Notes under the pieces: generated by a model
Database searches by the model: none
Told to the model about the DNA's origin: nothing
What the model saw: the letters and a program-made list of their open reading frames with translations, nothing else
IMG/VR virus record: IMGVR_UViG_3300036904_000029
Span: 1-41,475 of that record
Strand: one strand, 5' to 3'
Source of the DNA: a virus
Lineage: Duplodnaviria; Caudoviricetes
DNA length: 41,475 nucleotides
Shown here: in pieces, positions 15,493 through 30,976 of the stretch
Layout of the letters: each line of letters begins with the position of its first letter
Position numbering within the stretch: the first letter of the stretch is position 1
Translations under genes and position numbers: made by a program

Positions 15493-15734
15493 CAAAGTGT
15501 CGGGGGGAAATGGGAAGTGAGAGAAAACCCCGGTGCGGCTTGGTTGAAAGCCGGAAAAGGAAAATCGGAAGGAATCCGAAAAACCGTTTGAGAGTTGGGG
15601 AAACAAGCCTTGGCAAAAAGACATTTTCGGGCGGATGACGAATCCGCCCGTTGTGATTTGTCCCGGATCAACCGGGGCGAATGACAGCGGAAAAACCAAT
15701 ATGCAAAAAACACAGTACACGACATAATCCAAAC

Positions 15735-17222
15735 ATGAAAACACTAAACCAATTCAAAGCAGCGCGCCGCGTAAGCGTACCGCTGATTGTATGGAAAACA
15801 CCCGATCCGGCGGCAACAATCGCGCAAGTGGTTGAACTCGCCAACGGAAAGGGCGCACCCGTGGCGCAATGGGATTGCGTTCGCGGAATGAAACCGTTGA
15901 ATGAACAGGCACAGGGAAAAGTCAGCGGAGAAATCGCAATCGGCAACCCGGTTGACGCGCTGATTTACATGGAAAGCTTGGACGAAAAATCCATCCTGTT
16001 TTTCCACAACGCGCACAAGTTCACAGCCGATCCCGGAACGCTGCAAGCGGTCTGGAACCTGCGCGACTCCAACAAGCAGGCGGGAAAAACGCTTGTCCTG
16101 CTTGCACCGTCCATGCCGATTCCGCCGGAACTGGCAAACGATGTTCTGGTATTGGATGAAGCGTTGCCGGATGAAGCGCAGTTGACGGAAATTGTTTTGC
16201 AGCAATTCGAGTCCGCCGAACTTCCCAAACCCGGCGACAAGGAAACTAAGAAAGCCGTGGACGCAATCAGCGGATTGTCCGCTTTCAGCGCGGAACAGGT
16301 TGTGGCAATGAGTTTCGAGGGAAAAACGGGAAGCGTGAAACTCAACCACGGATCATTGTGGGAAAGAAAGCGCCAAGCCGTTGAAGAAACACGCGGATTG
16401 AAAGTTTGGCGCGGCGGCGAAACATTCAATGACATCGGCGGCGTGCAAAACATCAAAGACTTCCTTGCGCTGTTCATCGGCGGACGGAAACCGCCCCATG
16501 CAATCGTTTGGGTTGATGAACTGGAAAAGAGCCTTGCCGGTGCGCAAGGCGACACTTCCGGGACATCACAGGATCAACTTGGAGTGTTCCTAAAGGAAAT
16601 GGAAGATAACGCGGCGGAAGGCGTGCTGTTCGTTGGGCATCCCGGCGGCGCGAAGTCAATGGTTGCAAAAGCAACCGGAAACACGGCGCAAGTCCCAACA
16701 ATCGCAATGGATTTGGGAGCGATGAAGGGAAGCTTGGTTGGCGAAAGCGAAGCCAACATACGGGCCGCGATGAAAGTTGTGAAATCCGTTTCACGCGGGA
16801 GCGCGCTTTACATCGCAACCTGCAACAAAATCGGCGTGATTCCGCCGGAACTGCAACGCCGGTTCACGCTCGGAACTTTCTTTTTTGACCTTCCATCGAA
16901 GGAAGAAAGGGAAACGATTTGGAAGCTTTACACTTCCAAGTTTGAATTGAGCGGCGAAGCGGCGAAGCGCCCGGAGGACGATGAAGGCTGGACGGGAGCG
17001 GACATATTCAACTGCGCAAAACGCGCTTGGATGTTCCGCACGTCATTGGCGGAAGCGGCAAAGTACGCGTCCCCGATCTGCAAAACACGTCCCAAGGAAA
17101 TCGAAGCGTTGCGCGATGTCGCAAACAACGCTTTCATTTCTGCGAGTTATCCGGGACTTTACAAAAAGGGATTCGTCCCGATTGAAAAGCCGGGCAAGCG
17201 TCAAATCAACATGGCAAACTAA
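15735..17222 (+). CDS. Ycf46-like AAA+ ATPase with permuted motif order
   Basis: Degenerate N-terminal AAA domain; FNDIGG, IVWVDELEK (Walker B), GHPGGAKS (Walker A), GSLVGESE, IATCN, PPELQRR, FFDLP. Confidence 0.85.
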   Translation: MKTLNQFKAARRVSVPLIVWKTPDPAATIAQVVELANGKGAPVAQWDCVRGMKPLNEQAQGKVSGEIAIGNPVDALIYMESLDEKSILFFHNAHKFTADPGTLQAVWNLRDSNKQAGKTLVLLAPSMPIPPELANDVLVLDEALPDEAQLTEIVLQQFESAELPKPGDKETKKAVDAISGLSAFSAEQVVAMSFEGKTGSVKLNHGSLWERKRQAVEETRGLKVWRGGETFNDIGGVQNIKDFLALFIGGRKPPHAIVWVDELEKSLAGAQGDTSGTSQDQLGVFLKEMEDNAAEGVLFVGHPGGAKSMVAKATGNTAQVPTIAMDLGAMKGSLVGESEANIRAAMKVVKSVSRGSALYIATCNKIGVIPPELQRRFTLGTFFFDLPSKEERETIWKLYTSKFELSGEAAKRPEDDEGWTGADIFNCAKRAWMFRTSLAEAAKYASPICKTRPKEIEALRDVANNAFISASYPGLYKKGFVPIEKPGKRQINMAN

Positions 17223-17245
17223 ACCCAAACAAACCAAAAAAAACA

Positions 17246-17644
17246 ATGAGTCACGTAGCAGAAATCGACTTGCATATCACCGATTTGGACGCTGCCGCGA
17301 AAGCGGCGGAATCCATCGGATGCGAGTTGCTAAAAAACAAAACGTCATTTAAGACATACCAACGCGGGTTGACGTGCGAGCACGTTATCAGCGTAAAAAA
17401 CAACAACTCAGCCTATCAAGCCGGGCTGCAAAAACGGACGGACGGAAAGCCGGGATACAAGCTTGTCTTTGACAATTACGGAATGGCAGGAAAGATGTTG
17501 CAAGACAAAATCGGGGTTGCTGGCAACAACTTCAAAGATCACTACGGCGCACAGGTTGCCGCAAAGGAACTGCGCAAGCAGGGATTCCGCGTCCAATTCC
17601 AAAACATTCCAACGGGAGGCGTTCGCGTAACATGCAACAAGTGA
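17246..17644 (+). CDS. DUF1257/Ycf35-like protein
   Basis: MSHxxxIxxxITD start, ends in YG...KQGF; follows the Ycf46-like ATPase. Confidence 0.7.
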   Translation: MSHVAEIDLHITDLDAAAKAAESIGCELLKNKTSFKTYQRGLTCEHVISVKNNNSAYQAGLQKRTDGKPGYKLVFDNYGMAGKMLQDKIGVAGNNFKDHYGAQVAAKELRKQGFRVQFQNIPTGGVRVTCNK

Positions 17645-17817
17645 TATTTGAAAGCGTCAACGGCGTCCCAAAAATCACCGTCAAAGGCGTTAAGGGAAAA
17701 GGCTGCAAATCCCTTACGGCGGCGGTTGAAAAAGCGTTGGGAGAAACAACAAGCAGCAAGCCAACCCATGAATACACGCAAACCGAAACCAAGCAAAACG
17801 CTTCTAATCGCCTTTAG
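17632..17817 (+). CDS. DUF2997-like protein
   Basis: VKGVKGKGCKSLTAAVEKALG...PTHEY. Confidence 0.75.
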   Translation: MQQVIFESVNGVPKITVKGVKGKGCKSLTAAVEKALGETTSSKPTHEYTQTETKQNASNRL

Positions 17818-18079
17818 GAACGGGAAGGCAATCGCAGTTTATGACGATTGCCTTCTGCCGATCCTTCAGCAAGGCGACTCAACAATAAAACGCGCTTCCA
17901 ACGTGGAACCGGAAACGGACGGTTGGAGCGCGGACTTGTCGCCGGTCAAGGGGCCGAAGATGCGCGGATTTTCAACCCGCGCGGCGGCGTTGGCGGCGGA
18001 AGTGAAATGGCTGAACAAAAACATCATCAGCGAAACCAAGAAAACGAAAGGAACCAAACGAATAAATTCTACTTCATAG
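17768..18079 (+). CDS. Conserved hypothetical partner of the AAA module
   Basis: RASNVEP...WSADLSPVKGP...TRAAALAAEVKWL. Confidence 0.65.
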   Translation: MNTRKPKPSKTLLIAFRNGKAIAVYDDCLLPILQQGDSTIKRASNVEPETDGWSADLSPVKGPKMRGFSTRAAALAAEVKWLNKNIISETKKTKGTKRINSTS

Positions 18080-18258
18080 CCCAAAGAAAAGGTTGGAGGC
18101 GTTACGGCATCATCTACGCCGACAACGCCGAAAGCCTGAAATCGGAGTTGGTCAAATATGACTGGACTCCGATCCTGATAAAGCCAGCGCCATTGGACGC
18201 GAAGCTTTACGATACGACAAAACCAATCGACACAACCACGACAGCGAAACAAGACTGA
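18007..18258 (+). CDS. Hypothetical protein
   Basis: Fills the gap before the next gene; start uncertain. Confidence 0.45.
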   Translation: MAEQKHHQRNQENERNQTNKFYFIAQRKGWRRYGIIYADNAESLKSELVKYDWTPILIKPAPLDAKLYDTTKPIDTTTTAKQD

Positions 18259-18275
18259 CAAAAAGACAAACCAAC

Positions 18276-19169
18276 ATGACTAAAACAAAAACATCCATCG
18301 AAGAAAAAAGCGTATTGCTTGTGCTTGAATTCAAGCTAATGGGCAACACGCGCACCGTTGATAACCGCCAAGTGACGGTTGACGCTGAAAAAGACAGAAC
18401 CAAGACAACCAAAAAGCTGATTGAGTCCCCGGCTTTTGATGCAATCCGTTCGCACGATTCCAAGACTCGCGCATTCCTTTACTCGCGCTCGCTTCCGTCC
18501 CTTTTCAAAGAGGGGGTTTTCAGAATTCCAAACACGTTCGTTGCGGACGTGGACGATTACCTGATTGCGCGCGCCACGGAACGCAAGGCATTGGTGAAGG
18601 AATTCCGCAAGGAATACGTCAACGCCGTAAAAGAGGCGGCGACGGACTTGCGATCCCTGTTCAACCCGGCGGACTACCCGCACGCCGACGACATAACAGC
18701 GGAATTCAACCTGCAATGGAGCTACGTCGCGTTCTCAACACCCGACACGCTTAAAGGCATCAAGTCCGGGCTGTTTGAGCGCGAGAAAAAAAAGACGGCG
18801 GAACTATTCCGATCCGCCAATGAGGAAATCAAAAACCTACTGCGCGCAAGCACGGCGGAACTTGTCAACTTCATGGTTGAAAAGCTTTCCACCAAACCCG
18901 GCGAGAAAACAAAACGCATCCATGAAAGCACGATAGCGAAGTATCAAGACTTCCTTGCGACGTTTGACGCGCGCAACTTGGTTGACGACACGGAACTAAA
19001 GGGGATCGTGGACAAGGCAAAAAAACTGATAAGCACGGCAAGCGTTGACGACCTAAAGGAAGGCGGCGCGTTGCGCGAGAAAGTGAAAGAAGGATTCACG
19101 GCGATCAAATCGGAAATCGACAAGATGATTGTCGTCAACCCGGCCCGCAAATTCTCTTTCGAGGATTAG
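18276..19169 (+). CDS. DUF3150-like helical protein
   Basis: KKLI...LFNPADYP...F.L.W pattern, about 300 aa, associated with the AAA module. Confidence 0.6.
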   Translation: MTKTKTSIEEKSVLLVLEFKLMGNTRTVDNRQVTVDAEKDRTKTTKKLIESPAFDAIRSHDSKTRAFLYSRSLPSLFKEGVFRIPNTFVADVDDYLIARATERKALVKEFRKEYVNAVKEAATDLRSLFNPADYPHADDITAEFNLQWSYVAFSTPDTLKGIKSGLFEREKKKTAELFRSANEEIKNLLRASTAELVNFMVEKLSTKPGEKTKRIHESTIAKYQDFLATFDARNLVDDTELKGIVDKAKKLISTASVDDLKEGGALREKVKEGFTAIKSEIDKMIVVNPARKFSFED

Positions 19170-19293: not shown

Positions 19294-19542
19294 ATGGCAA
19301 CGAAACCAACACGGCTGGAAAAAGTGATGCAACTTGCGGCAGGCGCAATCAAAGCCAGCGGCATATCCGTTGAAGTTCTCGCGACGGAAATAGGACACCC
19401 GAAAAAATACCGGCAGATTTACCCTTGGTTGGACAACAGGATTCCGCCGGGGGGAGAAATGACACTTGAAATATGCGCGTGGTTGCACCGTCATAGCCCA
19501 AAAACGCGCAAGGCATTGGAAGTGATCCTTGCCGAAAAATAA
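19294..19542 (+). CDS. XRE/Cro-like HTH repressor
   Basis: SGISVEVLATEIG...QIYPWL...PPGGEMTLEICAWL; operator directly upstream. Confidence 0.6.
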   Translation: MATKPTRLEKVMQLAAGAIKASGISVEVLATEIGHPKKYRQIYPWLDNRIPPGGEMTLEICAWLHRHSPKTRKALEVILAEK

Positions 19543-19558
19543 AATCCCAACATCAAAC

Positions 19559-20434
19559 ATGAAAACACAAACAACCCGAAAGGAACAAAACAACATGGCT
19601 ACCAAAGCCGACAAAGACAAACTGGCGAAAGGCGCTGCCGCAATCCGCAAAGCCGACGCTGAAAGAAAGAAAAAGAACAAAAAGACACCGCCCGCCGATC
19701 AACTTCCGGCGCTGCCCGATGTCACCGCAAGCGAGCGCCCGATTGGGGAACTGCTTACGGAGCGCGTGCAAATCGACACAACGCACCTGAGCGTGACACT
19801 TAGCAAGGAAACGCCTTTTGGCGAATACCTGCCGATCTTCGACTACTTCCGCGACACGGCGGAACATGCCGGATTCATGCTTGGGGACATCATCAACCAA
19901 GGGAAGGCGATCTACGGTGCGACGTACGAGGGCATCATGGCAAAGACGGGACGCGCAAAGCAAACACTGGAAATCTACGCCACAACATCGGCGCACGTTC
20001 CGGCGAACATCCGCGAACCGGCGCTGACATTCACGCATCATCGCGAAGTCGCGGCGATCCCGGACAAAAAGGATCAAATCGCGCTGCTTAAAGATGCGAA
20101 GAAAAACAAGTGGAGCGTGTCGGAACTGCGCGCCGCCGCCAAGCCGAAGAAACCCAAAAAGGAACCGCGCAAGCCAAAGGCAAACGCCAATCCGCGCAAG
20201 ACCAAGAAAGGCAAGCCGGCCCCGCCGCCATACGAACCAAGCGCCGACGAAACCGCACAGGTTGACGCGGCATTGGAAGCGTTGCGCGGGACGGACGCGG
20301 AACATCTGACAGCCGGATTCAAAACACTGGCGATCAAACTGAGCAACAAAACCAAAAAGGAAATCAGCGCCGCGCTTGCCCCGTACGCCGAACTGAAAAA
20401 GGCAATCGACGACAAAACCGGATACGGAGATTAA
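19559..20434 (+). CDS. LmbU-like DNA-binding protein (ParB/Spo0J-type HTH core) with Lys-rich flanks
   Basis: FMLGD...G...YG.TY......TG...QTL..Y......R...LTFTHHREVA...Q..LL..A....WSVSELR; alternative start 19595. Confidence 0.7.
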   Translation: MKTQTTRKEQNNMATKADKDKLAKGAAAIRKADAERKKKNKKTPPADQLPALPDVTASERPIGELLTERVQIDTTHLSVTLSKETPFGEYLPIFDYFRDTAEHAGFMLGDIINQGKAIYGATYEGIMAKTGRAKQTLEIYATTSAHVPANIREPALTFTHHREVAAIPDKKDQIALLKDAKKNKWSVSELRAAAKPKKPKKEPRKPKANANPRKTKKGKPAPPPYEPSADETAQVDAALEALRGTDAEHLTAGFKTLAIKLSNKTKKEISAALAPYAELKKAIDDKTGYGD

Positions 20435-22081: not shown

Positions 22082-22582
22082 ATGCCGCGAAAAAAGAAAC
22101 GTCCCGCCACGGTCAAAGCACGGAGCGGATACGTTGCAACGAAGGTTGCGCTTGCCGTCGCGCTGGACATTGCGCGGACGGAGCTTTATCGGGACTTCCG
22201 GCAACCGGGACATCCGGGAAAAACAAAGCAGGGATACAGCGTTGAAAAATGGAAACAATTCCGGCAGACGGCGCGACCGGCGGCGACAAGTTCAAAGCAA
22301 AACGCGGAAATCGAATACAAGCGCGCGCAGACACGGAATCTTGATTTCGATTTTGCCGTCAAACGGAAGGATTATCTTCCGTGCAAGGATGTCAACGAAA
22401 CGATTGCAAGCGCGAACGCGATTGTTACGCGGGAGTTTTTGAAATTGGAATACGAACTTCCGCCGCACTTGGAAGGATTGGCAGTAGAAGAAATCCGGGT
22501 TGAGTTGGGGCGTGCGATCCGGGAAGTATTGAAAAACCTGCCAAAGAAATTCAAAGGCACGGAACCGGAAAAAGGTAAATGA
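22082..22582 (+). CDS. terS: Terminase small subunit (Nu1-like)
   Basis: N-terminal HTH plus coiled coil, ATGA-coupled to terL. Confidence 0.75.
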   Translation: MPRKKKRPATVKARSGYVATKVALAVALDIARTELYRDFRQPGHPGKTKQGYSVEKWKQFRQTARPAATSSKQNAEIEYKRAQTRNLDFDFAVKRKDYLPCKDVNETIASANAIVTREFLKLEYELPPHLEGLAVEEIRVELGRAIREVLKNLPKKFKGTEPEKGK

Positions 22583-24570
22583 TTCTGAAAAGCATTTACC
22601 GGGAATATGAACGGAGTTTGCAGCCGCCGGATGATGAACCGATTTACGAATGGGCGCGGCACAGGATCAAACTTGATTCAACGTCCCCGATAGCCGGATA
22701 TTATCGGATCGAAAACTCGCCTTGGCTGCGCGAAATCTTCCACGCCTTCCAAGCGCCGGAAACCCGAATGGTTACAAGCTTGGGGCCGAACCAAGGCGGA
22801 CGCACGAAGGCGATGGAAGTCGCAAGCATTTGGAGCGTCAAGCACCGGGCAGGCCCAATGCAATGGAACGGAAGCAAAGACGACAAGGCGGAAGCGTTTG
22901 CGGAAAAGCGTTGGTGGCCGATGGCGCGCAGTTGCGCCGAAATCGTGGACATGCTCCCTGACGGCGGAACGGGAATGGGGGACGCTCGGCACAAGGTTCG
23001 CAAGGCTTCCGTGATCTTCAAAAACGGAATGCCATTCACAATACAGGGGAGCGCGCCGGGGAACTTGCAGGAAGATTCGATAATGACGCAGTTCAACGAT
23101 GAGTGTTTCCAATGGCCGGTTGGCCGGCTGGAAGATGCTTGGATACGGTGCAACGTCGCATACGCATGGAATCACAAAATTTGGAACGGCAGCGTTGCCG
23201 GGCTTGAAGATGACGACGTGGACAAAACTTTCAAAGAGGGAACACAGGAAGAATGGCATTGGAAGTGTTTGAATCCGGCGTGCGGACATCTTCAAATCCC
23301 GCGATGGGGAAGGCGCGAAGAAAAAGGGGGGATCAAATGGGAGGAAAATGAATTCACCCGGCCAAAGGGGGAATGGAGTTACGTAGCGGTTGCCAAGACT
23401 GTTTATTACGAATGCGAATCATGCGGACAAAAATGGGCGGACACACCGCGCTCGCGACGGCTGCTAAACCATGGCGCGTGCTATGTTGCCAAGAATCCGG
23501 GCGCTGGAATAAAACACCGTTCATTCCGGTTCAACATCCTTACCGTGAACTGGCCCGGATTGAATTGGGCGCAATGGGTTGTCGAATTCCTGAAAGCGGT
23601 AAAAGCTTCCCGGCACACCGGAAACCATGAACCGCTTAGACTTTTTTGGACAAGGCGCATGGTTGATCCGTGGAACGAACAGCGGCATATCAACAGCAAC
23701 CGGCGGATAATCGTTTCCGATTACAAGCTTTACCCAAACGCCGGGGACAAAAATTTCTACATCGCGAACAAATGGGAAAATGAGGCATACCGGTTCATGG
23801 CAAACGACAAGCAGGAAATCGGCTACTGGTATGCGATCCGGGCGGCGCGGCAGAACGGGGAAAGCAGACTGATTGAAAGGGGGAACCTTTCGAGCTATTC
23901 GGAAATTGACGCCAAGGCGAAAGAGTTTCGCGTGATCCCAAAGCGCACTCTGATTGATTGCAGCTATGAACCAAGGGAAGTGTTCGCGTCAGCAATCAAA
24001 TACGGTTGGACATGCTTTGCGGGCGACGACCGGCCAAGCTTCAAGTATTCCGTGAAAGTCAGCGACGGACGCGGCGGCGAAAAGATACTGAAAATCGAAT
24101 CTCCCCACAGCGATCCGTCACAACCGCTTTGGGGCGATCCGGGCATGGGAGGAAGCAAGCAGCAACTAAACGCACGCGCCACAACCCGGATACTCGCGCG
24201 AAAATTCCTTTGGAGCACGCTTGCCATAAAAGACATGCTGACAGCGGCAAAACAGGGGCGCTCAATTTATTGGGGAGTCCCGTCCGATTGCGGGGACGAA
24301 TACCTGAAACAAATCAACTCTGAAATAAAGTTTCGCGTCCGCACCCGGAACGGGCCGGAAACATTCCGTTACACAAATTCCAATGCCAAGGGAACGGGAT
24401 CAAAGCGTCCAAACCATTATTGGGATTGCGAGTGCATGATTTTTTGCGCCATGATAATGCAAGGGTTGATTGACATAAGCGGATGGAACGGCGATTCAAG
24501 CGAGACAATCGAAAGTTGCGTTGACGCAACCGGCGAAGATGATGCTAAAACGGAAAGCGCCCAAACATGA
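22579..24570 (+). CDS. terL: Terminase large subunit, lambda GpA family
   Basis: SPWLREI, QGGRT (Walker A variant), FNDE (Walker B), CxxxC/CxxC zinc ribbon, NHYWDCE. Confidence 0.9.
   Translation: MILKSIYREYERSLQPPDDEPIYEWARHRIKLDSTSPIAGYYRIENSPWLREIFHAFQAPETRMVTSLGPNQGGRTKAMEVASIWSVKHRAGPMQWNGSKDDKAEAFAEKRWWPMARSCAEIVDMLPDGGTGMGDARHKVRKASVIFKNGMPFTIQGSAPGNLQEDSIMTQFNDECFQWPVGRLEDAWIRCNVAYAWNHKIWNGSVAGLEDDDVDKTFKEGTQEEWHWKCLNPACGHLQIPRWGRREEKGGIKWEENEFTRPKGEWSYVAVAKTVYYECESCGQKWADTPRSRRLLNHGACYVAKNPGAGIKHRSFRFNILTVNWPGLNWAQWVVEFLKAVKASRHTGNHEPLRLFWTRRMVDPWNEQRHINSNRRIIVSDYKLYPNAGDKNFYIANKWENEAYRFMANDKQEIGYWYAIRAARQNGESRLIERGNLSSYSEIDAKAKEFRVIPKRTLIDCSYEPREVFASAIKYGWTCFAGDDRPSFKYSVKVSDGRGGEKILKIESPHSDPSQPLWGDPGMGGSKQQLNARATTRILARKFLWSTLAIKDMLTAAKQGRSIYWGVPSDCGDEYLKQINSEIKFRVRTRNGPETFRYTNSNAKGTGSKRPNHYWDCECMIFCAMIMQGLIDISGWNGDSSETIESCVDATGEDDAKTESAQT
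24515..24530. repeat. 16-bp palindromic motif, copy 7
   Basis: GTTGCGTTGACGCAAC in the terL 3' end. Confidence 0.9.
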
Positions 24571-25199
24571 AAGTGCTTGTCGCGTGTGAATGTTCCGGTA
24601 GAGTCAGGGAGGCATTTAGAAAACGCGGGCATGATGCTTGGTCGTGCGATATAAAACCAAGTGAAGATGGCTCGCTGTTCCATATTCAAGACGACGTTTT
24701 AAGCGTCATGGCAAAAAATTGGGACTTAATGATTGCGCACCCGCCATGTACTTACCTTTCTTTTGTTGGGAACAGGTGGAATAAAAACAATCCAGAGCGG
24801 CAAAAGAAACGCGAGGAAGCGATGGGTTTCTTTATGGCGTGTTACAATGCGTCAATTAAAAAAGTGTGCATCGAAAATCCAAGAGGATACCCTATGACGA
24901 TTTTTAAAAAACCAACCCAAACAATTCAGCCGTACTGGTTTGGTGACAATGAAATGAAAACGACTTGCCTGTGGCTTAGGGGGTTGCCAAAATTGCAAAC
25001 AAAACTGGGAATGACTTTGTTTGGAGAGTGTGAACTTATAAAGCCGGAGCCGTATTATTTGCTATCCAGCAAAAACGGAATGGGAAAAAAGATATATTTT
25101 ACTGAAGCAATAAAAGGAATGTCAGCAAAAGAAAGACAATGCGCGCGATCCAGGACTTTCCCAGGAATCGCAAACGCAATGGCCGAACAATGGGGCTGA
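24567..25199 (+). CDS. Phage-type DNA cytosine methyltransferase
   Basis: VLVACECSG, AWSCD, IAHPPCTYL (PC), IENP, RSRTFPGIANAMAEQWG. Confidence 0.8.
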   Translation: MKVLVACECSGRVREAFRKRGHDAWSCDIKPSEDGSLFHIQDDVLSVMAKNWDLMIAHPPCTYLSFVGNRWNKNNPERQKKREEAMGFFMACYNASIKKVCIENPRGYPMTIFKKPTQTIQPYWFGDNEMKTTCLWLRGLPKLQTKLGMTLFGECELIKPEPYYLLSSKNGMGKKIYFTEAIKGMSAKERQCARSRTFPGIANAMAEQWG

Positions 25200-25244: not shown

Positions 25245-25484
25245 ATGGCTTTGTCAGACAATCCCTTTATAGGCTTGGACGCCGTGCAGATTCAACAACT
25301 TCAAACAACTTGGCTGCAATGTTTGAATGACATTGCAACAGCCGGGCAAAGCTACACGCTTGGGCGATCCTTCACCCGCGCGAACCTGCCCGAAGTCCGT
25401 AACATACTTTCCGAGTTGAGCATTGCGTTGCGATACATAAACGGAAAGCTTGTTTCCAATGCCCAGCCAAGATTTTGCCGGTAA
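25245..25484 (+). CDS. Head-to-tail joining protein (gpW-like)
   Basis: GQSYTLGRSFTRANL; position between terL and portal. Confidence 0.7.
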   Translation: MALSDNPFIGLDAVQIQQLQTTWLQCLNDIATAGQSYTLGRSFTRANLPEVRNILSELSIALRYINGKLVSNAQPRFCR

Positions 25485-25490
25485 CGGGCA

Positions 25491-28178
25491 ATGAAGGAAA
25501 AATACAAGCCATACGTTCCCACCAAGGCGGAAGCTCGGATTGACAAGGTTATCGGACTGTTCGCACCGATGCGCGCAGAACACCGTATGCAATCGCGGGA
25601 GCGGATGAATTACTTCCGCTACCTTGCCGCGCAATCCAACAACGTGCGGCAGAACGCGCATCCAAGCAGTTCCGGCGAAACGATCCGGGGAAGCCGGGAG
25701 AAAATGCAACTCATGTGGAACGCAATCGACATGATTGACAATTCCGGGCTTGGGGAAGGGATGCTGAAAAGGCTTGCGGATTACACCGCCGGGACGTTGC
25801 GATACCAAGCGCGAACCGGCGACAAGGCGGTTAATGAGGCATACGAAAGTTATTTGAAGGTGAAATTCGGAAAGGCAATCGACTACTCGAAGCGGTTTAC
25901 CTTGCGGCAAAAGGCGCAGCTTTCCGTGCGAAGCATTGCGCTAAAGGGCGATGTTGGACAGAACACCGTGCGCGAGGATTCGGAAATTTACTTCCAAGGC
26001 ATCGAAGCCAACCGAATCGGTGATCCCTACAATTACAACATTTCAAACCGATACATCCGGGGAATCCATATCGACGGAACCGGGACGCCGCAAGCATACG
26101 ACATCTACTCGCAGGATCGGAATTCCGCGTTCTACCGTTTTGAAATGCAAGTACCGGCGTTTGAAAAAACGGGACTGCCAAGGTTTCTTTTCGCGCACAA
26201 TCCAATCAGCTATGACGATTATCGCGGAGTGACGCTGTTCAAATCCGCAATCGACAACATCACGTTTTTGGATCAAATGCGGCAGTACGAATTGCAGGCA
26301 ATGCTTTGGGCATCTTCGCAGAGCGGCGTTTACAAGACCAAAAGCGGCACGCTGCCGGAAGGATTGCCGTTTGACGAAAACCAGCCGGAAGTGGACGCAT
26401 CCGGCAACAAGCTTCGCAGCTTCACCGTTCGCCCCAACACCGTGCAGGCAATCGGGGACGGGGAAGATGTTCACCTGTTCCCAAACGAACGGCCAAGCCC
26501 AAACGTGATTTCAATGTATCACGATTCCATCAAAGATTTTTGCGTTGGAACGGGATTCACTTTCTCTTTCGTGTACGACGCAACCGGGCTGAACGGCACG
26601 GCGATGCGCTACTGTTCATCGCAAGACAAGCGCGCAATCATCACTTGGGAATTAAACCTTTTGGAAAACATGCTTGATCCCATTGCGATGCTCACGCTTG
26701 GCAATGGCATTGCAAACGGAGAAATTCCCTATCATCCGAATTGGCGCAATGGTACGTTTATCTTTCCACCGTGGCCGACAGTGGACGCGGGCAGGGAGAG
26801 CGCCGCGAACATTAACGAAGTGAATGCCGGTATAAACAGCGGCACGCGGGTTGCAATCGAAAATTCCGATGATATAGGGGAAATTACGAAGGAACTTTCG
26901 CACGAAACGCAAAACCGAATTCAGGAAGCGAAGCGGATTGCGAAAGAGGAAGGGATTGACGATTGGCGGGAAGTGTTTGGATTTCTAAAACAGGGCGGCG
27001 GAGAAACCAAACTTTCCCCGCTCACTGAAAAATCCCGTGCGGATCAAACGCAACAAAACCCGCTGGCGGACGCGGACAAGAAAGGCGCAACAAGCGACGG
27101 CGCGGAGTTGGATGAAGATGAAGGCGGCGAAGAAACCGAATTCAAAATGAAAGGGCGCGACGGCGGAACGATCACGCTTCGCGGAAGGGTTGTGAAAAAA
27201 AACGGCAAAACTGTATTTGAACTGAGCGGGGTTGACGATGAATCCCGCGACGATCACGGGCGTTGGACGGAAGGAGGCGGAATATCTGGCGCAGCGTCGC
27301 ACTTGCAACCGACGCAAAAAGTTTTCACTGAGAGCGTGAACAAAAAAGGCGAGAAAGTAACATCGTCAAAATTCCTCACGCACGAAGGAAAGGAATTGCC
27401 GGAACATTTGTCCAAGATGAAAATTCCGCCCGCGTGGACGGATGTAAAAATCTCGCACGATCCGAACGCGAATTTGATGATACAGGGGAAAGATGCGAAG
27501 GGGCGCACGCAATCCGTCTATTCCGAAAATCACACAATGAAACAGGCTGCTGCAAAGTTCGCGCGCATCCGGGAGCTGAGCGAAAAGAAGGACAAAATTT
27601 TTAAGCAGAACGAAGATAATCTTTCACATTCCGATCCGAGCATTCGCGAAAACGCGGCGGCATCACGGCTGATTCATTCCACCGGAATCAGGCCGGGCAG
27701 CGACGCAGAAACCGGCGCGGAGAAAAAAGCATACGGCGCGACAACATTGGAGGGACGCCATGTGACGCAGGATGAAAATGGAAATGTGGTTTTGAAATTC
27801 ACCGGCAAAAAAGGCGTCGATCTTTCCATTCCGGTTGAGGACAAAAAAATTGCAGCCGATTTGCTGGAAAGAAAAAAAGCGGCTGGAGACGCCGGGAAGA
27901 TTTTCAAAACGGATCAGGCGAGCCTTGGCGATTACACGCACACTTTGGACGGCGGAGGATTCAAGACAAAAGATTTCCGAACACTCAAGGGAACAACGAC
28001 CGCGTTGGATGAGATTGAAAAAATGCCCGCTCCGAAAAGCGAAAAGGAATACAAAAAATACGTCAAGACCGTCGCGAGCGCCGTTGCAAAAAAACTCGGA
28101 AACACACCAGCGATTGCGCTGCAATCTTATATCTCGCCTCACGTCTTCGAGGATTGGAAAAACAAACTCGCCGCATAA
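25491..28178 (+). CDS. Lambda-family portal protein fused to a C-terminal type IB DNA topoisomerase domain
   Basis: Portal about aa 1-500 (YRGV, ERPS, TVDAGRE); TopIB about aa 630-895 with IPPAW, GKDAKGRTQ.VY, R734 (GIRPG), K773 (FTGK), R830 (KDFRT), N871 (GNT), Y880 (SYI). Confidence 0.9.
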   Translation: MKEKYKPYVPTKAEARIDKVIGLFAPMRAEHRMQSRERMNYFRYLAAQSNNVRQNAHPSSSGETIRGSREKMQLMWNAIDMIDNSGLGEGMLKRLADYTAGTLRYQARTGDKAVNEAYESYLKVKFGKAIDYSKRFTLRQKAQLSVRSIALKGDVGQNTVREDSEIYFQGIEANRIGDPYNYNISNRYIRGIHIDGTGTPQAYDIYSQDRNSAFYRFEMQVPAFEKTGLPRFLFAHNPISYDDYRGVTLFKSAIDNITFLDQMRQYELQAMLWASSQSGVYKTKSGTLPEGLPFDENQPEVDASGNKLRSFTVRPNTVQAIGDGEDVHLFPNERPSPNVISMYHDSIKDFCVGTGFTFSFVYDATGLNGTAMRYCSSQDKRAIITWELNLLENMLDPIAMLTLGNGIANGEIPYHPNWRNGTFIFPPWPTVDAGRESAANINEVNAGINSGTRVAIENSDDIGEITKELSHETQNRIQEAKRIAKEEGIDDWREVFGFLKQGGGETKLSPLTEKSRADQTQQNPLADADKKGATSDGAELDEDEGGEETEFKMKGRDGGTITLRGRVVKKNGKTVFELSGVDDESRDDHGRWTEGGGISGAASHLQPTQKVFTESVNKKGEKVTSSKFLTHEGKELPEHLSKMKIPPAWTDVKISHDPNANLMIQGKDAKGRTQSVYSENHTMKQAAAKFARIRELSEKKDKIFKQNEDNLSHSDPSIRENAAASRLIHSTGIRPGSDAETGAEKKAYGATTLEGRHVTQDENGNVVLKFTGKKGVDLSIPVEDKKIAADLLERKKAAGDAGKIFKTDQASLGDYTHTLDGGGFKTKDFRTLKGTTTALDEIEKMPAPKSEKEYKKYVKTVASAVAKKLGNTPAIALQSYISPHVFEDWKNKLAA

Positions 28179-28179
28179 C

Positions 28180-28374
28180 ATGCCCAAAATTTTACAGCAA
28201 AAAACGGATACGCATTTCGGCGCGGTTGGAAAAGACTGCGAAAATTGGCGCGAGGCGGAAACAAATGACGACGATCCCGATGACGAAATTCTTGCGGACA
28301 CGCCGGATGACGTGGTTTCGATATTGGGATTCGACCCGAAGGAATTTTCAAAACCCGTGCCAAGCGCGAAATAA
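28180..28374 (+). CDS. Small acidic protein immediately after the topoisomerase domain
   Basis: 64 aa, NDDDPDDEILADTPDDVVSILGFDP. Confidence 0.65.
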   Translation: MPKILQQKTDTHFGAVGKDCENWREAETNDDDPDDEILADTPDDVVSILGFDPKEFSKPVPSAK

Positions 28375-28461: not shown

Positions 28462-29448
28462 ATGCTATTCCGATCCAAACAAAGCCTTGGCAGTAACGCG
28501 ATGGAAAACCGCGTTGACCGGGAAACGGGAATCATCAAAGGCGTTTCGCTGATTGCTTTCGGCGCGGCGAAAGGCCACAAGATTCTTTGCGACGACGAAA
28601 CGCTCAAGCAGGTCTTGGAAAAGGGGAAGGCGTTCAAAAACGGAATCCCGATCAAATGGAATCCTGACACGAACGATCACGGGCCAGCTTCGATTTGCGG
28701 GAAACCGATTCAGAACACTTACCGTATTTCAGGCGGCAAAGTTCTTTGCGACGTGCAAGTTTACAAAAGTTATCCGTACAAGGATTATCTGTTTGACATT
28801 TGCGAGGATCGTCCCGATAACTTCGGAATCAGCATCGAATTCAAGGGCGATCCCGAAACCAAAGACGGAATCAACTTTGCGCGATGCGAAGAATTGAACG
28901 CAGCAACATTTGTGGACATGCCCGCCGCCAACAGCGAAGGGCTGTTCCAAGAAAAAGAAAAACCAACCGAAGAAACCAATATGGCACTATCCGCCGAAGA
29001 TAAACGCGAATTCGCATCCATGCTTTCCGAAGCAATCAAACCGCTTTCGGAAAAAGTGGACAAAACGCAAAAAGATTTCCAAGCCTTTCAGGAAGGCGCG
29101 AAAAAAGAAACTCCGCCGACAGCCGACGAAATGAAGGAAGCCGGTTGCGCCGACACGGACAGCGACGACGACAAGGCGAAGAAAGTCACGGCATACCGGC
29201 AGAAGATGAACGCGCCGGTTACGAACGCCGGGTTGATGAAGTTTTTCCGCGCGAACGGCGGGCGTCCCGTTGGCGCAAGCGTCCCGGCGGACGGCGACAA
29301 GGGCGGCGATGCGTTCATGGCAAAAGTGAACCACTTCAAAACCGGCGAAGTCACCGAACCGGAAGCGATCCGGCTTGCGGCAAAAGCTTTCCCGAAACTC
29401 TACAACGCTTTCATGGCGAAACCGGCGAAACAGCCGGAAGCCGCGTAA
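28462..29448 (+). CDS. Prohead protease/scaffold
   Basis: VDRETGIIKGVSLI..G.AKGH, FGISI, FVDMPAAN; possible internal scaffold start MALSAEDK at 28981. Confidence 0.75.
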   Translation: MLFRSKQSLGSNAMENRVDRETGIIKGVSLIAFGAAKGHKILCDDETLKQVLEKGKAFKNGIPIKWNPDTNDHGPASICGKPIQNTYRISGGKVLCDVQVYKSYPYKDYLFDICEDRPDNFGISIEFKGDPETKDGINFARCEELNAATFVDMPAANSEGLFQEKEKPTEETNMALSAEDKREFASMLSEAIKPLSEKVDKTQKDFQAFQEGAKKETPPTADEMKEAGCADTDSDDDKAKKVTAYRQKMNAPVTNAGLMKFFRANGGRPVGASVPADGDKGGDAFMAKVNHFKTGEVTEPEAIRLAAKAFPKLYNAFMAKPAKQPEAA

Positions 29449-29911: not shown

Positions 29912-30976
29912 ATGCCAGTATTCACCGTGTCAGCCGCCCGCCCGCGCCAAGAACTTTCGCTCGCCATTGTAGAGGGGGAGGGAATGGTTGACGGACTTAT
30001 CGGGCAGGAAATTTATCCCGATTTCCCGATCAACCGGCGCACCGCGCATATTATCAAAGCTTCGCTGGCAAACACACAGGGGTTGCGGCTGATTGCGGAT
30101 GCGAAGTTCATCCATGCGCCCGGAACGAAATTTGAGCGTGTTGTGGCGAAATTTGATGACGACACGATGACTGTCACGCTTCGCGGGCAGGAAATCGTTG
30201 TCCCCAACGAAGTTTCGTTGGATTACGACGAATACTTAGACCAAGAATCCTTTTGGGCGTCCCGTTTCGGCAACGAAACTTCGGCGCTGACAAAGGAATA
30301 CCTGATTGAACTGGCGACGTTCTCTACGGCGACATTCGGCGCGGCAACCAACTCCAACGTGGCTTACACGGCGGCGGCACGCGACATTTCCGGCCCGCTC
30401 GGAATGAATCCCGTGCAAGACATCATCGCCAGCATCCGGCGCGTCAAAGCGAAGGGTGAAATTCCCGATACCGTTGCCATGAGCGGATTGGTGTGGGAGC
30501 GGGTTTCCACCTGCTTGAACACCCTGCAATTTGTGCGCGGTTTCTTGCAGGCAAACGCGGATGTCACCTTGGACAATTTCAGCAAGGCGCTGGCATCTTA
30601 CGGCATCAAGAAAGTGTTGGTGGGAGATTCGTACTACAACATCGCGGCGGAGAGCGCGACTCCCAACCTTGTCCCGATTTGGAGCACCGCTTACATTTGG
30701 GTTGGAAAATCCGGCAAGAAATCCAAACCGGCGACAACCGGCGGCGTTGCCGTGCCAACCCTTGGCGGCGTCGGTGCGAACATCTATTGGGAGGGTTACG
30801 CTCCCGGCGGAAAGCCTTCAATCGGACTTGACGCCAAAGAATTCGTTGGCGGGAATTACGTTGAATCGTATCCCGATCTTTCCATCGACTCCATGATCGT
30901 ACGCGTCAAAATGTCGTCGCTACCATACACCGGCAACCCGCGCGCTGGCGATTTGATTGCAACGCAGTACGTTTAA
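29912..30976 (+). CDS. Major capsid protein
   Basis: 354 aa, position, IYP..P N-terminal and PDTVAM motifs of HK97-fold capsids. Confidence 0.8.
   Translation: MPVFTVSAARPRQELSLAIVEGEGMVDGLIGQEIYPDFPINRRTAHIIKASLANTQGLRLIADAKFIHAPGTKFERVVAKFDDDTMTVTLRGQEIVVPNEVSLDYDEYLDQESFWASRFGNETSALTKEYLIELATFSTATFGAATNSNVAYTAAARDISGPLGMNPVQDIIASIRRVKAKGEIPDTVAMSGLVWERVSTCLNTLQFVRGFLQANADVTLDNFSKALASYGIKKVLVGDSYYNIAAESATPNLVPIWSTAYIWVGKSGKKSKPATTGGVAVPTLGGVGANIYWEGYAPGGKPSIGLDAKEFVGGNYVESYPDLSIDSMIVRVKMSSLPYTGNPRAGDLIATQYV

Follow-up and report, generated by a model that had tools for sequence, protein, structure and literature searches.

The open reading frame at positions 25491-28178 raises the question of what a topoisomerase is doing at the end of a phage portal protein. 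The window, by which we mean the whole stretch of 41,475 nucleotides analysed, is the 41.5-kb genome of a tailed phage; it carries a terminal repeat of 127 nt, its record is classed as viral with direct terminal repeats, and all but one of the 13 runs containing the locus are labelled as peat metagenome. The frame is single and open, encodes 895 aa on the plus strand, and stands in a run of genes in which the terminase, methyltransferase, adaptor and portal-TopIB (topoisomerase IB) fusion are followed by the protease-scaffold, a cement-like gene and the major head protein. The features needed below are:

22579..24570, plus strand: lambda gpA-type terminase large subunit (Pfam, PHROG)
24567-25199: DNA methyltransferase-like gene (PHROG 757), flanked by the genes for the terminase large subunit and the adaptor
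25245..25484, plus strand: head-tail adaptor in a gpW-like position (PHROG 118)
25491..27113, plus strand: lambda-family portal proper, aa 1-541 (Pfam PF05136, PHROG 21), ending at a GATSDG motif (aa 532)
27114..27224, plus strand: linker, aa 542-578, acidic then basic in sequence, with a cut after F576 or L578 proposed by analogy
27225..27281, plus strand: cargo tag, aa 579-597, with its core RDDHGRW at 27246, of a kind common to unrelated cargo modules
27390..28178, plus strand: bacterial/poxvirus-type topoisomerase IB, aa 634-895 (Pfam, alignment, model), with R734, K773, K827, R830, N871 and Y880
28180..28374, plus strand: acidic partner of 64 aa, pI 4.2, its start codon 1 nt past the TopIB stop, a predicted active-site plug
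28462..29448, plus strand: prohead protease-scaffold (start possibly 28501), named from Atlas features and structure as leads, with a fold like S77/S78/S80 head proteases
29912..30976, plus strand: major head protein (PHROG 1005)

A portal running into a topoisomerase could simply be an assembly chimera, or a frameshift that merged two genes, and sequencing depth was indeed low, with contigs at 5-8×. Nevertheless, run X4, from a study other than that of the three samples that may be the source, has a contig across the junction, and over 25984-27510, which takes in the portal, the linker, the tag and the start of TopIB, it shows 0 differences. Run X2 spans the whole fusion ORF, although the window may derive from it. 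The comparison with four runs listed neither joints nor indels, X4, X5 and X8 lacking the middle of TopIB. Contigs from RNA runs also cover pieces of the locus, e.g., 28011-28294 over the TopIB/partner border, which is sequence coverage rather than expression. The same architecture recurs in 66 other portal proteins (among the best 120 of 279 TopIB matches), making a chimera or frameshift extremely improbable. The check for a chimeric assembly proposed in the initial annotation gave no sign of one, and translation and Pfam bore out its description of one 895-aa frame holding a portal, an acidic linker, an RDDHGRW motif starting at aa 586 (nt 27246) and a TopIB domain.

The portal half matches Pfam Phage_portal_2 at aa 74-383 (E 3e-22), scoring 79.7 bits against PF05136 (cut-off 32.9) and 59.9 against TIGR01539, under the equivalog cut-off of 172.7. 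Its position after the terminase and adaptor fits lambda-family gene order, such that profile and gene order both place it in that family. In the C-terminal half, Pfam recognises Top1B_N_bact (PF21338) at aa 640-668 and Topoisom_I (PF01028) at aa 684-877 (E 6e-24). The pentad R734/K773/R830/N871/Y880 with its 39/57/41/9 spacing, pointed out in the initial annotation, is present and in register with the catalytic positions of the Deinococcus radiodurans enzyme (2f4q, E 1.9e-25). Its Asn in place of His (N871) is likewise a bacterial trait, occurring in the active TopIB of Pseudomonas aeruginosa according to the accessible text of PMC2666729. All five residues are kept in 120/120 relatives (the best 120 of 279 matches), as is K827. 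The AlphaFold model of the domain has a pLDDT of 92.8 and its best structural matches are TopIB enzymes (3m4a, E 3.7e-14; 2h7f, TM 0.82), as the initial annotation had led one to expect. Identity as a protelomerase or tyrosine recombinase was ruled out by the fold scores, which were E 1e-14 to 1e-9 for TopIB structures versus E >1e-3 for protelomerase and Cre. With R-K-R-H/N-Y in register and an N-terminal beta domain joined to the catalytic fold, the domain is of type IB; it is also basic (pI ~9.4). The term "catalytically intact" thus holds for a complete residue set at the sequence level, and ATP-independent relaxation through a 3'-phosphotyrosine would be expected of it.

The topoisomerase is not a standing part of this kind of portal. 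A portal search returned 73 relatives of 30-58% identity, and there was no TopIB match among these 73 closest portals. A GATSDG-like motif was found in 39 proteins, 15 of which stop within 7 residues of it. Other relatives run on into zeta-toxin-like kinase, GNAT, 2H, FAD oxidoreductase, PI3/4-kinase-like or ParB-like domains (cargo domains were rescanned in 28 of the 73), and portals that are 45-58% identical bear different cargo or none. In P0002-P0006, on the other hand, the TopIB part is ~65% identical to that of the window and the portal parts are 19-27% identical. The initial annotation had suggested surveying portal homologues for variable C-terminal cargo, and among the 73 relatives such cargo does vary or is absent. 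Comparison of these proteins indicates that the C-terminal slot of the portal is exchangeable.

Two other arrangements were noticed among these portals. In three of the subfamily (P0230, P0244 and P0254) the tagged cargo is an FAD oxidoreductase resembling thioredoxin reductase, and in P0229, P0301 and P0302, which form one 90% cluster, the portal and a predicted kinase are either split (580 + 488 aa) or fused (1084 aa).

The other side of this exchange is the spread of the topoisomerase over carriers. A search with aa 600-895 against proteins of 492-1567 aa gave 279 matches, and the best 120 comprised 67 portals, 11 MuF proteins (with PF04233 and no portal), 5 DUF2213 proteins and 37 other or unassigned carriers. 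The 67 portals divide into 47 PF06381, 11 PF06074, 2 PF04860 and 7 lambda-type, four of the last being calls that depend on weak Pfam or BLAST matches. Other partners of TopIB include ART, Nudix, 2H/Acb1, InPase and helicase domains. That search could return only fusions because of its length filter, so 160 loci from viral and metagenome data were also taken, giving 131 distinct TopIB sequences when the window is counted; in viral contigs a single-sequence query found nothing and an alignment query succeeded. In this set, 34 of the 108 frames closed at their 5' end are stand-alone TopIB genes with a short leader, and 15 of the 19 stand-alone loci of at least 8 kb share their strand with a recognised head gene. 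One stand-alone TopIB (L161:1999-3210), on a Chthoniobacterales MAG contig, has a tag at the very N-terminus and a partner gene, and its cassette lies between the terminase and a Mu-type portal.

The clade is compact (~262 aa) with 50-69% identity within it, and a quick tree of 83 labelled domains, with 32 of 80 branches open, required 16 carrier changes where 5 would be the minimum. No member was found in cultured phages among 50,697 records, where the best match was 30% identical. The wider family, at E up to 1e-30 and as 50%-identity representatives, numbers 1191 proteins, cellular TopIBs included.

These distributions bear directly on the first role suggested for the enzyme in the initial annotation, i.e., relief of torsion during packaging or ejection. 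A TopIB tethered to the portal as a swivel would be well placed beside the moving DNA, and portal fusion is the commonest form (67 of the best 120 of 279). However, with no TopIB on the 73 closest portals, a slot shared with other cargo or none and TopIB on distant portals, a required packaging role is unlikely. The enzyme also rides on MuF or DUF2213 proteins or stands alone (34/108), and its alternates in the slot include enzymes unrelated to DNA topology. Furthermore, one lineage (L193, L221 and L258) has deleted the enzyme body, the portal, tag and first TopIB residues running in frame into the acidic partner, with portal-ORF ends near locus positions 2569, 1739 and 2569, respectively, on the coding strand. 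An apparent cut signal ahead of the tag also argues against permanent tethering. We therefore regard a tethered swivel as improbable and do not take torsion relief to be the main role.

That cut signal was recognised by comparing cargo modules. Most begin with a short tag from a small set that includes F-x-E-x-x-H-P-R, Y/F-N/D-P-x-x-x-R-D and G-G-x-G-S-G, and in multi-module proteins the tags repeat at the head of each module, with four in P0042. The same kinds of tag head unrelated cargo modules, in agreement with the earlier remark that RDxxGR(W/F) motifs occur in cargo extensions of phage head proteins. Heads were typed by portal family, which was possible for 79/140 loci and 89 proteins. 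In residue windows picked after the data were seen, and with counts that represent four or five lineages rather than independent events, Lys falls in the last two positions before shared tags in 22/22 HK97-type, 8/114 PF06381 and 2/11 Mu-type cases, Asp in the last four positions in 5/22, 109/114 and 0/11, and Asn in the last three positions in 0/22, 9/114 and 7/11, respectively. In the portal subfamily of the window, Phe, Trp or Leu precedes 40/41 tags (31 proteins) against a background of 8%. The seven lambda-type rows of the head-typed set are mixed, with no single residue before the tag. In PF06381 heads the same Asp site appears at 11/15 capsid-protein starts and 9/10 scorable protease ends, and one capsid cluster (4/15 sequences) has no Asp leader. 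The protease of HK97 cleaves after Lys, and the portal of Mu is shortened at its C-terminus.

We read the residue before the tag, which in these counts matches the head type, as a prohead-protease cut site; alternatively, it could be part of a lineage-specific tag. Read as a protease site, it would place the cut in the window's protein after F576 or L578, by analogy only since the tag of this protein is a variant outside the strict pattern. The protease part of the protease-scaffold ends in GLF, which would fit a cut after Phe. In T4, gp21 cuts internal proteins after Glu and these proteins are ejected (PMC9026906, in the part available). The initial annotation had offered cleavage by the prohead protease and injection as an alternative to torsion relief, with a cut expected near aa 575-590; this alternative is now favoured, and the proposed site after F576 or L578 falls within that range.

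Immediately downstream lies a gene that the initial annotation overlooked. No family was found for the 64-aa acidic partner in Pfam, PHROG or NCBIfam, the Atlas gave no usable family, and its profile shows no likeness to TopIB. With a partner profile built from 90 of the loci in which it was then counted, the partner was found within 300 nt of TopIB in 109/125 loci with room for it (104 as separate genes, 5 in frame), and in 12 of the 16 misses it sits 0.3-2.4 kb further on. A search of G005, the only genome examined among those whose TopIB is distant, did not find it. As the partner alignment was too variable for a locus search, viral contigs were scanned for its motif instead. This gave 87 matches, of which 77 have 600 nt or more of upstream sequence; TopIB lies there in 73 of these 77. 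Of the four matches without TopIB, three are almost identical copies of a single deletion in which the TopIB start is joined to the partner. The linkage of the two genes is thus, by these counts, tight in both directions. No tag precedes the partner motif in 107 partner frames, and one follows it in 20 of 38 long partner frames.

The predicted partner-TopIB complex scored 0.70, compared with 0.01 for the best of three controls. The mark for such complexes, reached by 116/157 solved complexes and 2/215 mismatched pairs, is only roughly applicable because our own alignments were used here. The runs share at least 67% of contacts, with a partner pLDDT of at least 63, and the predicted interface takes in R734, K773, K827, N871 and aa 877-879 just before Y880. 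The partner is thereby predicted to lie across the active site and DNA-binding cleft of TopIB.

At a rough probability of 0.65, we propose that TopIB is exchangeable cargo delivered in the virion to the next host. The portal ring has 12 copies and the portal C-terminus faces the head interior. On this proposal, the ring of 12 subunits would bring the tag-TopIB module into the prohead, where the head protease would free a basic tag-TopIB piece of 34.6 kDa that leaves the head with the DNA at ejection. During late expression the partner would keep TopIB off DNA in the producing cell, and, lacking a tag at its front, would stay behind. Against delivery, a folded domain of 29-35 kDa would have to unfold in order to pass the tail.

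It is also conceivable that TopIB is loaded and cut but acts late in the producing cell or in the head, e.g., on the packaging substrate, without ever being delivered. Its co-expression with late genes would suit such a role. However, the co-expressed predicted inhibitor would silence it in exactly that phase, and the slot's other cargoes are of types proposed as injected effectors in the available texts of PMC5512222 and PMC9503650, so we consider this rather unlikely. The pair might instead be a selfish, toxin-antitoxin-like cassette that occupies a permissive late-gene slot and has no virion role. It is indeed a two-gene unit that moves between carriers, the P. aeruginosa TopIB is toxic when expressed (PMC2666729, in the portion available), and relic copies of TopIB plus partner lie amid bacterial genes in two Alcaligenaceae MAGs (L165:5764-6786 and L172:6001-6669), one adjoining a transposase-like ORF and the other broken. 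Yet the cassette is almost always within a head module, its tag and head-type-matched residue are common to other cargo, and no mobility gene was noticed in an incidental rather than systematic look. We give little credence to a purely selfish cassette.

If TopIB is delivered as we propose, its target after entry is the least certain part of the model. It would act in the new host on the phage genome as this enters, serving as a swivel that needs no ATP, although the benefit is not obvious given that bacterial hosts already own gyrase and topoisomerase I. A swivel aiding entry or early transcription is our tentative suggestion. Cascade binding is favoured by negative supercoiling, and a counter-defence role is therefore possible, in which the genome is kept relaxed to blunt host defence; we judge this somewhat unlikely, and relaxation of host DNA less likely still. 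The broadest version is speculative and, on balance, doubtful: that hundreds of uncultured tailed phages inject TopIB as a first-minute weapon paired with a DNA-mimic inhibitor, for example relaxing the incoming genome so that supercoiling-dependent defences fail. In that version the loading would follow a general two-part code, consisting of a cut residue matched to the head protease and a retained ejection tag, across unrelated head types.

Portal-, MuF- and protease-fused effectors have already been described (accessible parts of PMC5512222, PMC9503650, PMC5576092 and PMC3482391). In the literature searched, of which few subscription papers were reached, we found no description of a head-fused phage TopIB or of its partner. 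The string "topoisom" occurs once in the main text of PMC5512222, in a reference title, and the 131-domain supplement to that paper may list TopIB; the string is absent from the main texts of PMC9503650, PMC5576092 and PMC3482391 (for the last, its first 300,000 characters).

The nearest precedent is the polyvalent proteins of Iyer et al. 2017. In the parts of PMC5512222 and PMC9503650 available, these are variable enzymes fused to the portal, to MuF or to the head protease, with genes in the head module, and their injection has been proposed. Here, too, at least two disparate domains share one chain in a portal-terminase context, domain content varies among orthologues, and the TopIB clade co-occurs with ART-PolyVal, InPase, ddrB-ParB, Nudix and 2H. 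The difference is that, in the same portions of those papers, the polyvalent proteins are proposed to be processed by built-in metallopeptidases, rather than to bear a tag with a head-type-matched cut residue. MuF polymorphic toxins (Jamet et al. 2017, PMC5576092; Zhang et al. 2012, PMC3482391; both in part) similarly comprise a head protein with an exchangeable C-terminal enzyme, and the small gene after the cargo, predicted here to neutralise it, may be a further likeness. However, the carrier in the window is the portal itself and the cargo a topoisomerase, and Pfam detects no MuF domain (PF04233) in the 895-aa protein.

As an enzyme, the phage TopIB shares its fold, two-domain layout and Asn-for-His set with bacterial TopIB (D. 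radiodurans 2f4q/3m4a; P. aeruginosa, accessible text of PMC2666729), but its clade is compact, its members are fused or tagged, and an acidic partner accompanies them. T4 internal proteins (PMC9026906, in part) are also variable, loaded into the prohead, cut by the head protease gp21 and ejected. As far as that text extends, T4 removes the targeting peptide, whereas here the tag follows the proposed cut and would stay on the cargo; loading here would also be by fusion to the portal. Vaccinia topoisomerase IB belongs to the same enzyme class, is carried in the virion and acts mainly in early transcription, which it supports (PMC12188299, part seen), and so provides a precedent for an early-transcription role of a delivered TopIB. 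It differs in being a free protein of a eukaryotic virus with His at the fourth position. We know of no portal, tag or inhibitor associated with it.

Our best reading is that a TopIB-plus-inhibitor cassette in an exchangeable portal slot is an addition to the known polyvalent head cargo. Of the initial annotation, the fusion, the catalytic set, the cargo-type tag and the cut-and-inject alternative stand; torsion relief as the main role does not, and neither the partner gene nor the exchangeable nature of the slot had been noticed. If our reading is true, virion-borne topoisomerase IB would extend from poxviruses to tailed phages, and the 64-aa partner would count as a small, naturally occurring protein that inhibits a class of drug-target enzymes. 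Virion cargo could be predicted from sequence by the cut-residue and tag rule, which would also give testable specificities for uncharacterised head proteases. The enzyme, the inhibitor and the cut rule can all be assayed with recombinant proteins, with phage culture unneeded.

Several observations concern the rest of the genome. A homologue search for the protease-scaffold returned the protein itself alone, a single-sequence locus search of viral contigs for it was empty, and a promoter/terminator scan of the window did no better than chance. The nearest TopIB among 185,579 genomes is on a Chthoniobacterales MAG contig (60%), but the portal matched just 2/301 genomes of that class, at 26-29%, too little to assign a host. 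At 15681-19169, an AAA ATPase gene (15681-17222) precedes small ORFs and a gene of 297 aa that matched no family, in what looks like a conserved block. Finally, a 16-bp near-palindrome, GTT(G/T)CGT(C/T)(A/G)ACGCAAC, occurs in nine copies in the window (5307, 8550, 11654, 13666, 15414, 19224, 24515, 36039 and 40451, some within ORFs) where 0.02 would be expected by chance, and is a candidate operator-like site or putative binding site for the ParB-HTH protein encoded at 19529-20434.
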